Shown here in pieces: positions 19,978-23,425 of a DNA stretch of 64,000 bases. Both the position numbers and the translations under genes were made by a program. How positions within the stretch are numbered: position 1 is the first letter of the stretch; the number at the start of each line of letters is the position of its first letter. The notes beneath the pieces were generated by a model, which was not told where the DNA came from, did no database searches, and saw only the letters and a program-made list of their open reading frames with translations. Source of the DNA: Candidatus Campbellbacteria bacterium (GTDB lineage Bacteria; Patescibacteriota; Minisyncoccia; Phycocordibacterales; EsbW-18); NCBI GenBank assembly GCA_045863475.1, contig BTUR01000001.1:59846-123845 (forward strand), given 5' to 3'.

Positions 19978-20893
19978 GGCCGTACTGAATATGATTACTT
20001 CAATTAACTGCATACCGCGGAGCATATAGATGCGAGCCCTTGTGGTGCGCCTCGAAACCCTCCGCTCAAAAAGCGGTTTTTTTGTTCTCATAGACAGTCG
20101 ATGACCTTTGACAACTGCATAAGCAATAAAGAATCAAATGCTTATTTCGCGCAAGCGAAGTAAGCGCAGGTATCTCGTGCGGCTCATCTAGCGCCGCGCG
20201 GGAATCAAACAACGTGTACCGCGCAGCGGTGTGTTGGTGCACGGAATCGCAGACGCATGTAGGTGCGTATGCGATAAAGACGGTTTTTAGATTTCCTAAC
20301 GGGAGATTTAAAGGGCGTATGGTGGATGCCTTGGTTCTATGTGGCGATGAAGGACGTGGTGTAACTGCGATAAGCTTCGGGGAGGTGTTAAGCAACCTTT
20401 GATCCGGAGATTTCCGAATGGGGAAACCCTGTCGAGTAACCCTCGATAACCGACGCAGCGATGCGCGGAGCATACCCTGGGAAGTGAAACATCTCAGTAC
20501 CAGGAGGAAAAGAAAACAAATGTCATTCCCTTAGTAGCGGCGAGCGAAACGGGAGCAGCCCAAACCACACTGTACTTGTATAGTGTGGCGTTGTAGGGCG
20601 GTAACGCCTGTTTTTAACAAGGAGAAAGTTACAAAATACATCTTTAGTCGAATGCGCTGGAAAGCGCAATCCCAGAAGGTAACAGTCCTGTAGACGAAAA
20701 AGATGTATCTTTCTAGTTACCGTTCCTGAGTACCTCAAGACACGAATAGCTTGGGGGAATCCGCCGGAACTAACCGGCAAGGCTACATACACATAGAGAC
20801 CGATAGTGAACTAGTACCGCGAGGGAAAGGTGAAAAGAACCCCGGAGAGGGGAGTGAAATAGATCTGAAACCATATGCCTACAAGGAGTCAGA

Positions 20894-21228
20894 GCCGAGC
20901 TCTACTTTTTGTTTTTAATTTTCTTTGAACATGTTGAAGGTACGCTCGTGCATATGCACGTTGTGTATCTGATACAAAACACGGTGAGCCACGAACTGTA
21001 CGTTGGTGTAACACGCGACCTTAAAAAGAGGTTGGTGACACATAACAGCGGTGCGGTTACGGCAACGCGACGCAGCGGCGAGTGGGTCTTGATTTACGCG
21101 GAGGCGTATCGAGATGAGCACGACGCGCGCGAGCGAGAGCATCACCTCAAACAGCGCGGCGCGGCAAAACGCGGCGTGTATGAAAGAGTTCGAAGAAGTT
21201 TCCTTGAAAACAAAAAGTAGAGCTTCGG
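20894..21228 (+). other. Intervening sequence (IVS)-like insertion in the 23S helix-25 region, closed by a ~17-bp stem (gccgagctctactttttg ... caaaaagtagagcttcgg)
   Basis: rRNA similarity is interrupted after CAAGGAGTCAGAGC and resumes at GCGTGCCTATTGAAGAATGAGCCAACGAGTT; the insertion termini are an almost perfect inverted repeat. Confidence 0.65.
20954..21220 (+). CDS. GIY-YIG nuclease-superfamily protein (UPF0213-like, ~88 aa) encoded inside the 23S insertion
   Basis: VYLIQN...ELYVGVTRDLKKRLVTHNSG...LIYAEAYRDEHDAREREHHLK GIY-YIG motifs; ORF exactly fills the loop, stop codon TAG lies in the 3' stem arm. Confidence 0.7.
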   Translation: MHVVYLIQNTVSHELYVGVTRDLKKRLVTHNSGAVTATRRSGEWVLIYAEAYRDEHDAREREHHLKQRGAAKRGVYERVRRSFLENKK

Positions 21229-22765
21229 TCATGGCGTGCCTATTGAAGAATGAGCCAACGAGTTTAAGTATGCGGCGAAGCTAAATCCTTTGTCGGATGA
21301 AGCTGCAGGGAAACCGAGTGTTAATAGCGCGTACTTTGAAAGCAAGGAGGTCGGACGTGTAGGTGAGCAATCACACACGCGTTCGGCATTCTCGCTTTCA
21401 AAAGGTCGTATACTTAAGACCCGAAGCTAGGTGAGCTACCCATGAGCAGGGTGAACTTTGTCGAAAGATGAAGGGAGGCCCGAACCGGTTGATGGTGCAA
21501 AATCTTCGGATGACTTGTGGGTTGGAGTGAAAAGCTTATCGAACCTAGTAATAGCTGGTTCTCTCCGAAACAGCTTTTGGGCTGGCGTACAGCGTACCTC
21601 TTGGGGGTAGAGCACTGGATGGTCCGGATAGGGAGAAATCTCGCTGGACCAATCAAACTCCGAATACCAAGAGTAAGTACTGTGCAGTTAGACCGTGGGG
21701 GCTAAGCTCCACTGGTCAAAAGGGAAACAGCCCTTGATCTCAAGTTAAGGTCCCTAAATCGATGCTAAGTGCAAGTCGAGGAGGTGAAATTTCTCAGACA
21801 CTGAGGAAGTTGGCTTAGAAGCAGCCATCTTTTAAAGAAAGCGTAACAGCTCACTCACTCAGAGATTTCGCGCCACAGACTATCGGGGCTAAGTATCGTA
21901 CCGAAACTGAGGATGACACGTGCGTTCGCGCATGTGTCGTGGTAGGAGAGCATTTCCATCTGCGATGAAGCCGAAGGCGTGAGCCACGGTGGAGCGATGG
22001 GAAGAGAGAATGTTGGTACAAGTAACCGCAATGCGGGTGAAATACCCGCACGCCGAAAAACCGAGGTTTCCTTCGCGATGGTAATCAGCGAAGGGTTAGT
22101 CGGGCCTAAGCGAATGGCGAAAGCCGGACGTGATGGACACACGGTTAATATTCCGTGACTCGGCTGTAATTCGATGGAGAGACGGAGTGAAGTATATATC
22201 GCACATTATTGGATTTGTGTCGGGCATGCGAGGAGGTCTGTTTGGCAAATCCGGCAGACACTACTCCAGAGGCATGTTCGGGAACCCAATCTACGGAACG
22301 GGGAACGATATAAAGCGCGCTTCCAAGAAAATCTTCTAAGGTTAATTACAGACGACCCGTACCGCAAACCGACTCCGGTGGTTAGCTCGAGTAGAGTAAG
22401 GCGAACGAGTGAGAGGTCCTCAAGGAACTCGGCAAAAAAGCGACCGTAAGTTAGCAATAAGGTCTGCCTGCGCAGCAGTGCGTGGGCCGCAGCTAAAGTC
22501 TTCCTGGCGACTGTTTATCAAAAACACAGCTCCCTGCGAACTCGTAAGAGGATGTATAGGGGGTGACACCTGACCAATGCCAGAAGGTCAAGTATGGAGG
22601 GTCTTCTCCGCAAGGAGAAGGCTGAGCTATATAAGCCCTGGTGAATGTCGGCCGTAACTATAACGGTCCTAAGGTAGCGAAATTCCTTGTCGGGTAAGTT
22701 CCACGCCGATGAGAACAAATGCTATGGTACGTAAATAGTCTGTGCGCATGGCGAAGTGCCACGTG

Positions 22766-23425
22766 CTATGCAGTTTCTTCAGGTGCGGCTGTTTCTCCTT
22801 CTCCCTCCGCAGTTTCATCCTTACCTTTCTTTTCCACTTCGATTGCATCCATGTCAATCGGTGCAACCGGCTCTTCGATTTCTTCTTGCGGCTGAGAAAT
22901 TGCGGCAACCACTTCGTCTCCTTCGTTGAGAATCGTAACACCTGCAGGCACGGGTATGTCTTTAATGACAACTTGACTGTCAAACGTTTCAAGCGATGAC
23001 ACATCAACAGTGAGCTCGTGTGGCAAGTCTTTTGGCATCGCCTCAACTTCCACCTCGTGCATCACCTTCACCAGTGTACCACCCAAGTTCTTAACTGCGG
23101 GCGCCTCACCTGTGAACAACAGCGGGACATCGATGCGAAGCTTCTTTCCTTTCTCGATAACGTAAAAATCAACGTGCTCAAATACATCCGTGACCGGATG
23201 TTTTGTAACTTCATGAACGAGCGCGTCTTTCGGCTCACCAACACCTTCCAGTGTGATGATGGATGATTCACCGGCCGAGCGGAACACTTTTTCAAATGTC
23301 TTGCGGTCAACTGCAATCGGCGTGGATTCCTCTTTCGGACCGTAAAAAACCGCCGGAATCTTGCCGCCTTTGCGCAAGCTCTCCGCGTTTCCTGCCTCTC
23401 GTTTTTCTACTGTAAGCGTCAACAT
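22766..23425 (-). CDS. rplY: 50S ribosomal protein L25 / general stress protein Ctc
   Basis: L25/Ctc family (LTVEKREAG..SLRKGGKIPAVFYG, two beta-barrel domains, acidic tail); start set to MLTLTVEKR. Confidence 0.85.
   Translation of the reverse strand: MLTLTVEKREAGNAESLRKGGKIPAVFYGPKEESTPIAVDRKTFEKVFRSAGESSIITLEGVGEPKDALVHEVTKHPVTDVFEHVDFYVIEKGKKLRIDVPLLFTGEAPAVKNLGGTLVKVMHEVEVEAMPKDLPHELTVDVSSLETFDSQVVIKDIPVPAGVTILNEGDEVVAAISQPQEEIEEPVAPIDMDAIEVEKKGKDETAEGEGETAAPEETA

Follow-up and report, generated by a model that had tools for sequence, protein, structure and literature searches.

A 23S rRNA gene cut at a probable chimeric join in a Candidatus Campbellbacteria metagenome contig

A stretch of 64,000 nucleotides from a Candidatus Campbellbacteria bacterium (hereafter the window) contains a 23S rRNA gene that stops abruptly within domain IV, a short distance from a convergent ribosomal protein gene. 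We asked whether this stop is a property of the organism or of the contig on which it is found. The original prediction, made from the sequence alone, considered two possibilities, a genuinely split 23S rRNA and a chimera produced in assembly at an intron.

The 23S rRNA fragment and its end

A 23S rRNA gene had been predicted at 20298-22770. The gene is real, with a score of 1436 bits for Rfam RF02541 (LSU_rRNA_bacteria; gathering score 50) from window position 20299, and it was the sole rRNA match of the Rfam scan in 64 kb, but its end lies at 22702 and not at 22770. The end reported by Rfam (22833, "model 1-2925") stems from an alignment that was forced to run end to end. Aligned locally, 22350-23100 displayed a good match up to and including GGGUAAGUUCC (model ~1984 of 2925) and mismatches beyond, and the alignments to the E. 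coli 23S and to a related 23S from the candidate phyla radiation (CPR; contig L167) both stop at 22702. The sequence GGGTAAGTTCC aligned with positions 1947-1957 of the 2903-nt annotated E. coli 23S gene. We take these to be the canonical E. coli positions 1948-1958, with m5U1939 and m5C1962 placed within this block, and position 1958 to lie in helix 71 of domain IV. As read from the alignments, the final 23S base, window position 22702, is C1958, in agreement with the predicted sudden stop at about E. coli position 1958. The plus-strand fragment at 20299-22702 accordingly aligns as the first two-thirds, from the 5' end, of a 23S rRNA gene of the bacterial type. It covers E. coli 1-1958, with domains 0 to IV as far as the GGGUAAGUUCC block, and is missing the domain V peptidyl-transferase centre and the domain VI that a complete gene contains.

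The remainder of the gene was not found nearby. The 23S on contig L167 runs on past the equivalent of 22702 as GACGTGCACGAATGG, with no break and with a 5S gene after it, and a BLAST search with this complete 23S and 5S detected no second 23S-like or 5S stretch in the window. The 3' third of the 23S (from GACCUGCACG) is absent from the 41 kb downstream and the 20 kb upstream of the break. No 16S or 5S was identified in the 64-kb window by Rfam, and no tRNA by ARAGORN. These results bear out the earlier observation that the window contains no peptidyl-transferase centre, 5S, 16S or tRNA; the absence of 16S and tRNA is ordinary for Patescibacteria.

Upstream region and insertions

The consensus promoter noted earlier is present on the plus strand at 19950-19977, where a sigma-70-like TTGACA-16 nt-TATAAT site matches the consensus at 12 of 12 positions, about 320 nt before the mature 5' end of the 23S. 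Judged by its sequence, it may serve as the promoter of the gene. The flank running from this side into the 23S is backed by the independent Logan contig L083, which corresponds to window positions 7923-20426. Unlinked rRNA genes have been described in the Patescibacteria/CPR (Brewer et al., bioRxiv 10.1101/705046), and the arrangement here is similar, in that the 23S has its own promoter-like site and is preceded by genes for S12, S7 and EF-G and by an RRM protein gene, and neither a 16S nor a tRNA gene occurs within 20 kb. A 23S gene without a linked 16S is ordinary for the phylum and nothing unusual (bioRxiv 10.1101/705046). In 80 metagenome EF-G loci, neither a 23S nor the small genes that lie in between here were found downstream of EF-G.

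The fragment carries three plus-strand insertions relative to E. coli. The MAFFT pairwise alignment revealed 56 nt at 20588-20643 (near E. coli 291), which were also seen in the cmscan alignment, and the E. coli alignment showed a 69-nt hairpin insertion at 21333-21402 (near E. coli 652), with 32-nt arms that are 75% complementary and a 4-nt loop. The remaining one is an intervening sequence (IVS) at 20898-21224 in the helix-25 region (near E. coli 552), seen as a 320-nt insertion in the E. coli alignment. It is bounded by a 21-nt inverted repeat (20898-20918 and 21204-21224), the arms of which are 95% complementary, and the minimum free energy fold closes it into a long stem. Within it, an 88-aa ORF at 20954-21220 on the plus strand encodes a GIY-YIG nuclease domain (Pfam PF01541, E=3.1e-16) and is identical to the NCBI protein GMU73889.1 (AMXMBFR44_0880). 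Insertions encoding GIY-YIG proteins are known from CPR 23S genes (Tsurumaki et al. 2024, PMC11270868; Brown et al. 2015, as cited in PMC11270868), and the IVS resembles them in its location in a variable helix, its extended stem, its GIY-YIG ORF and the lack of a match to an intron model. This insertion is a known CPR feature, and it has nothing to do with the abrupt end of the 23S.

One junction truncates two genes

Facing the 23S fragment, the convergent rplY gene (L25/Ctc, 219 aa; GMU73890.1) occupies 22766-23425 on the minus strand, with its stop codon at 22766-22768. The assignment is based on the Pfam domains Ribosomal_L25p and TL5_C in the identical Logan gene and on the NCBI name. The distance from the last 23S base to this stop codon had been given as about 65 nt, and is approximately 63 nt (22703-22765). 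The distance stands, but the sequence is not plain intergenic spacer, since it consists of a 16-nt gap and the start of another gene: the first 15⅔ codons (MRTDYLRTIAFVLIGV) of slt, at 22703-22749 on the minus strand. Intact, slt is a 450-aa ORF in the Logan contigs L002 and L166, the product of which has a signal peptide, a coiled coil and an SLT_2 lytic transglycosylase domain (Pfam SLT_2 on the intact protein). In the window it is cut inside codon 16, in the signal peptide. Position 22702 is the last base of the 23S and 22703 the last base in common with the native rplY-slt sequence. Side-by-side comparison showed that the junction between them has a microhomology of 0-1 nt and falls inside a codon. 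A single junction hence truncates two genes, the 23S and slt, and the break is not a gene end.

Other assemblies read through this point differently. Contig L002 (run DRR491768) is 100% identical to window positions 22703-26377 (3.7 kb) and diverges beyond; past the junction it continues into the intact slt, genes for a 914-aa and a 151-aa protein, rpmE and prfA. DRR491768 is probably a run of the same project as the MAG (metagenome-assembled genome), and since the Logan contigs thus probably derive from the reads of that project, L002 is an independent assembly rather than independent data. Independent data on the junction come only from L166 and from 80 related genomes. L166, from an unrelated sample (SRR13959604; ~90.5% nucleotide identity), reads through the same point into an intact slt. 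In 79 of the 80 related Paceibacterota genome loci, slt is located downstream of rplY on the same strand, within about 300 nt in 68 of them, and in the remaining locus the sequence runs out 79 nt past rplY. These rplY loci also include rpmE (50 loci) and prfA (61 loci), and 23S-like sequence was found at none of the 80. The N-termini of the homologues align continuously over residues 16/17 and contain one signal peptide, which identifies the rplY-slt path of L002 as the native one. The possibility that L002 is itself the chimera is ruled out by these N-termini, by L166 and by the 79 relatives with the same arrangement.

The genes that follow slt are also displaced in the source MAG, AMXMBFR44. 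The window is located on a contig of 253,118 bp, and the post-slt genes (AMXMBFR44_5600, _5610 and _5620) on another of 67,919 bp. The annotation of this MAG includes no slt protein, and none was found in NCBI at ≥90% identity.

Origin of the junction

An intron in domain IV would offer a simple explanation, if a group I or group II intron were inserted at the hotspot there and the contig or gene model stopped short of crossing it. CPR 23S genes often contain group I introns at positions 1917, 1931 and 1952 (Tsurumaki et al. 2024, PMC11270868), and in the related 23S on L167, 272 nt are inserted at about 1931-1934. However, the window 23S is uninterrupted through 1917, 1931 and 1952, and breaks after 1958, 7 nt beyond the nearest described site (1951/1952). 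No match to Intron_gpI or to any other Rfam intron was obtained in the window or in a local search around the break, and the sequence after the break is not an intron, since it is rplY-slt DNA, 100% identical to that region in L001 and L002. Together, the position, the lack of an Rfam match and the DNA downstream rule out a group I intron at the break, and we give an intron of either kind practically no credence. Of the proposed assembly chimera at an intron, only the chimera is supported by the results, namely the cut in slt, the paths of L002 and L166 and the synteny in 79 of 80 relatives.

The second proposal was a genuinely split 23S, in which two separately transcribed pieces, a 5' one (1-1958) and a 3' one encoded elsewhere, would be assembled in trans, as occurs for split rRNA pieces in some organelles. 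In its favor, the 5' piece looks functional, as its conserved blocks are intact and a strong promoter-like site precedes it, and neither the 41 kb downstream nor the 20 kb upstream contains a 3' part. This proposal does not account for the truncation of slt in its signal peptide by the same break, nor for the existence of same-strain sequence with an intact slt (L002). The break is not conserved, as L167 is contiguous through 1958 and no rRNA is located beside rplY in the 80 relatives. Transcription past the break would go antisense into rplY, and no terminator-like site was found after 22702. A processing stem between leader and tail was rejected: the best inverted repeat spans only 28 nt at 71%, and the duplex energy was equalled by 9% of shuffled sequences and 27% of real-sequence controls. 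The similarity to the fragmented and scrambled rRNA genes of organelles, and to bacterial 23S rRNAs fragmented post-transcriptionally, is only superficial and limited to a 23S piece ending in domain IV, because here there is no partner piece, no conserved break point and no defined 3' end, and the neighbouring gene is damaged. With no 3' piece in the window, we regard a split gene as very unlikely.

The join at 22702/22703 is, in our judgment, probably a chimeric or mis-assembled one within a metagenome-assembled contig. The stop of the 23S is most likely chimeric because the junction also cuts the signal peptide of slt and is contradicted by other assemblies. Both flanks are from the same genome, judging by their tetranucleotide composition (r=0.90 between left and right); an inter-species chimera is ruled out by this agreement and by the occurrence of both flanks in sample DRR491769. 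To the left of the join would be the genuine 5' two-thirds of the organism's 23S, unlinked, with its own promoter-like site and CPR-type insertions, and to the right the rplY locus, equally genuine. 23S position 1958 would have been tied to slt codon 16 either by the assembler or by a chimera in the library, as a DNA fragment or a read, and the 3' third of the 23S, presumably with the 5S gene, and the body of slt would thereby have been lost from the contig. In the true genome, the real 23S presumably exists unbroken at another place. The continuation of the organism's 23S did not turn up in JGI metagenome contigs scanned with a 26-mer, none of 12 spurious ORFs from within the 23S was on record by exact look-up, and the best match in a homology search with the ORF spanning the break was 84% identical, with no copy from the same organism.

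In several observed respects the locus resembles known MAG misassemblies: one junction cuts two unrelated genes, an alternative assembly, probably of the same reads, disagrees with it, a conserved gene order is interrupted, and the displaced genes are on another contig of the same bin. Chimeric joins and misassemblies in MAGs are typically found at or near rRNA genes. Unlike misassemblies of the repeat-collapse type, this join has neither a repeat in common between its two sides nor a k-mer overlap, and it must therefore have been supplied by a chimeric fragment or read, or by a real rare variant. In a de Bruijn assembler, a blunt junction without k-mer overlap requires reads that bear the junction. 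The Logan contig L001 (DRR491769) matches window positions 33425-22704 and stops within 1 nt of the junction, which suggests a branch in the assembly graph and, in turn, the presence of junction-bearing molecules in the DRR491769 library. These results suggest that such molecules are either chimeric fragments or a true variant. We found no literature on the assembly method under the run accessions or the AMXMBFR prefix.

A true variant would be an inversion, or else a large deletion, that breaks the 23S at position 1958 and slt in codon 16, carried by part of the DRR491769 population beside the native arrangement, either as a non-functional or transient genotype or with a dead 23S remnant. The end of L001 is as expected for a graph branch, k-mer overlap cannot give rise to a blunt junction, so that molecules bearing it probably exist, and the two flanks are from the same genome. 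The cumulative GC skew also peaks at the junction, and the strand switch therefore resembles a natural convergence point. However, such a variant would wreck slt, which is kept beside rplY in 79 of 80 relatives, and presumably the only 23S gene, as CPR genomes usually carry one; a deletion would in addition take out rpmE and prfA. The sister run contains the native path with 100% identity (L002), and one chimeric library fragment, read from both ends, suffices for a branch at k-mer abundance 2. A real variant predicts either the reciprocal junction, with CCATTCGTGCAGGTC joined to CTGCTGAGTACGCC, or a deletion. We consider it rather unlikely, and the cause of the chimeric join would be a library or assembly artefact rather than a real DNA rearrangement.

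It is highly improbable that one sample has a dominant genome in which the junction is real, with an inversion that splits the single 23S after 1958 and pieces that join in trans. We know of no earlier bacterium with a 23S divided into two gene pieces that are not linked. If true, this would be the first such case, and it would bear on the limits of ribosome gene rearrangement in ultra-small symbionts. Most likely, however, the truncated 23S is not a real feature, and the value of the result is practical, in that it marks the 253-kb contig of AMXMBFR44 as misjoined at window position 22702/22703, with the loss of slt and of the 3' third of the 23S. With such a misjoin, any inference on synteny, the replication terminus or the rRNA operon drawn across this point would be wrong.

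Extent and surroundings of the 23S rRNA gene

An Rfam search of the whole 64-kb window gave LSU_rRNA_bacteria, starting at 20299 (1436 bits), as the sole rRNA match, with no match to 16S or 5S rRNA, and ARAGORN detected no tRNA genes in the 64 kb. In Patescibacteria, some tRNA genes are reported to be hidden by group I introns (PMC13011429). The complete 23S and 5S sequence of L167, a contig of a related bacterium of the candidate phyla radiation (CPR; GCA_013565575.1), was used as a query and found no further match elsewhere in the window. When positions 22350-23100 were searched alone, the alignment was good up to GGGUAAGUUCC (model position of about 1984), with mismatches beyond. 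This block aligns with positions 1947-1957 of the annotated E. coli 23S (2903-nt gene model) and is canonical E. coli 1948-1958, a one-base offset that rests on U1939 and C1962, which we take to be the modified bases of the GGGUAAGUUCC block. The 23S of L167 aligns up to exactly 22702 and then goes on as GACGTGCACGAATGG. The Rfam, E. coli and L167 alignments thus place the last 23S base at 22702 (C1958), confirming the original prediction of an abrupt end near E. coli 1958 with no linked 16S, tRNA, 5S or further 23S sequence in the window. The end coordinate reported by cmscan, 22833 ("model 1-2925", not cut off), is a product of forced end-to-end alignment. Such a global alignment masks the truncation although one third of the 23S is absent, so that automated annotation could call this gene complete.

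Relative to E. coli, the alignment revealed three insertions: 56 nt (20588-20643) at about E. coli 291, 320 nt (20898-21224) at about 552, and a 69-nt hairpin (21333-21402) at about 652. The second has a 21-nt stem with 95% complementarity and lies in the helix-25 region, a classic bacterial site of intervening sequences. It encloses an 88-aa GIY-YIG ORF (GMU73889.1; 20954-21220, plus strand; Pfam E=3e-16), for which only three homologues, about 50% identical and on short ENA contigs, were found among 5.8 billion proteins. It matches the published non-intron insertion sequences of CPR rRNA genes, which carry GIY-YIG ORFs at poorly conserved sites (PMC11270868). L167 likewise has an insertion at the helix-25 site, of a different length (272 nt).

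A promoter-like site with a perfect consensus match (TTGACA-16-TATAAT, 12/12) is located at 19950-19977, as had been claimed. The genes before the 23S (15347-20298) encode S12-S7-EF-G, two small ORFs without Pfam domains and an RRM RNA-binding protein; this flank was confirmed by the Logan contig L083, which spans window 7923 to 128 nt into the 23S. None of the 80 closest metagenome EF-G loci had a 23S or those small genes downstream of EF-G, which makes the neighbourhood lineage-specific. The lack of linkage to any 16S is ordinary, since unlinked rRNA genes are reported to be common in Patescibacteria (Brewer et al., bioRxiv 10.1101/705046). Elsewhere in the window, a low-GC island (44000-48500; 0.40-0.43 versus about 0.53) encodes a polysaccharide-biosynthesis flippase-like protein, four SAM methyltransferase-domain proteins and a Kdo/WaaP-like kinase. 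It is probably a gene cluster for surface polysaccharide that was gained by horizontal transfer.

The junction and the native arrangement

The convergent ORF is rplY (L25/Ctc; 22766-23425, minus strand). Exact-protein look-up located it on two Logan contigs. L001 (DRR491769) matches window 22704-33425 with 100% identity and stops at 22704, whereas L002 (DRR491768) is 100% identical over window 22703-26377 and goes on into sequence without counterpart in the window. The end of L001 thus falls 1 nt before the final base in common. In L002, an ORF begins 16 nt past the rplY stop codon (MRTDYLRTIAFVLIGV followed by LLSTPVFAAKKSLDDEIEE) and encodes a 450-aa protein with a signal peptide, a coiled coil and an SLT_2 lytic transglycosylase domain (slt), followed by genes for a 914-aa protein, a 151-aa protein, L31 (rpmE) and RF1 (prfA). 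In the window, slt breaks off two bases into codon 16 and passes into reverse-complemented 23S, reading CATCGGCGT followed by GGAACTTACCC as compared to the native CATCGGCGT followed by CCTGCTGAGT. The distance of 62-63 nt from the 23S to rplY is close to that predicted, but is not a plain spacer: it consists of the 16-nt gap and the beheaded start of slt. Thus, a single junction without microhomology, at 22702/22703, cuts two genes. The window has another SLT_2-domain gene (267 aa; 25423-26226, plus strand) at a distance of 2.7 kb from the truncated slt (intact slt: L002 3629-4981), and paralogous sequence may have played a part in breaking the assembly.

The path in L002 is supported as the native one in three ways. 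First, L166, a contig of a relative with about 90.5% nucleotide identity from an unrelated run (SRR13959604), passes through the junction point exactly like L002. Second, the N-termini of slt homologues (46-85% identity) align over residues 16/17, with an unbroken signal peptide and coiled coil. Third, among 80 genome loci encoding L25 relatives (all Paceibacterota/Parcubacteria MAGs; best identity 80%), 79 have an slt homologue past rplY in the same orientation, 68 of them at no more than about 300 nt; the sole exception terminates 79 nt past rplY. Also seen were rpmE (50/80) and prfA (61/80), and 23S-like sequence was absent from all 80 loci. The Logan runs are probably from the same project as the source MAG, so that L002 counts as an independent assembly although its data are not independent; those of L166 and the 80 relatives are.

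Split-gene and intron readings

A functional split 23S, originally raised as a possibility, is very improbable. No terminator-like site was found past the break, and leader-tail pairing (best inverted repeat 28 nt at 71%) was no better than in controls, being equalled in 9% of shuffled sequences and 27% of windows of real sequence. Nor is the break conserved: the related 23S of L167 (4016 nt; locus 2772-7024, minus strand) is contiguous, and a 5S comes after it. At about E. coli 1931-1934, a described CPR intron hotspot, L167 carries a further insertion, of about 272 nt, which is absent from the window 23S. The other proposal, a chimera at an intron, was supported by L002, L166 and synteny as to the misjoin, but not as to the intron, to which we attach practically no probability. 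No intron model matched the whole window or 22350-23100, and 1958 is none of the described CPR sites (1917, 1931 and 1952; Tsurumaki et al. 2024, PMC11270868), through all of which the window 23S runs uninterrupted.

Origin of the join

The deposited sequence does contain the abrupt end, but this is best explained as an artefactual misjoin and not as a property of the organism's rRNA gene. The GIY-YIG ORF, L25 and EF-G are identical to GMU73889.1, GMU73890.1 and GMU73884.1 of the source MAG (Candidatus Campbellbacteria bacterium, locus-tag prefix AMXMBFR44; 253,118-bp contig). The genes past slt in L002 are AMXMBFR44_5600, _5610 and _5620, on a separate 67,919-bp contig of the same MAG. No slt protein at >=90% identity was found in NCBI, none is annotated for the deposited MAG, and the Logan copy is the only one. 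Thus, the native neighbourhood is broken in or near slt in the deposited bin, and it is the 23S that now adjoins the rplY side. The two flanks correlate in tetranucleotide composition (r=0.90) and both are present in DRR491769, which places the join inside one genome and rules out a join between species. Cumulative GC skew climbs to about 22 kb and then drops (window about 20000-24000), so that it peaks where the junction and the strand switch lie; the flanks could belong to opposite replichores, but a misjoin that brought together two pieces in opposite orientation would give such a peak too.

A real but rare structural variant is unlikely, although the end of L001, no more than 1 nt from the junction, points to branching of the DRR491769 assembly graph, and a junction without k-mer overlap requires reads that carry it. 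Junction-bearing molecules were therefore probably present in that library, and could be chimeric fragments or a real but minor rearrangement. A chimeric fragment suffices, as one short insert read from both ends gives a k-mer abundance of 2. A real variant would lack slt and its presumably single 23S, and, if a deletion, rpmE and prfA as well, making it unlikely as the working genome of the organism. With a misjoin as the preferred explanation, the useful outcome is a warning flag on the MAG AMXMBFR44 contig.
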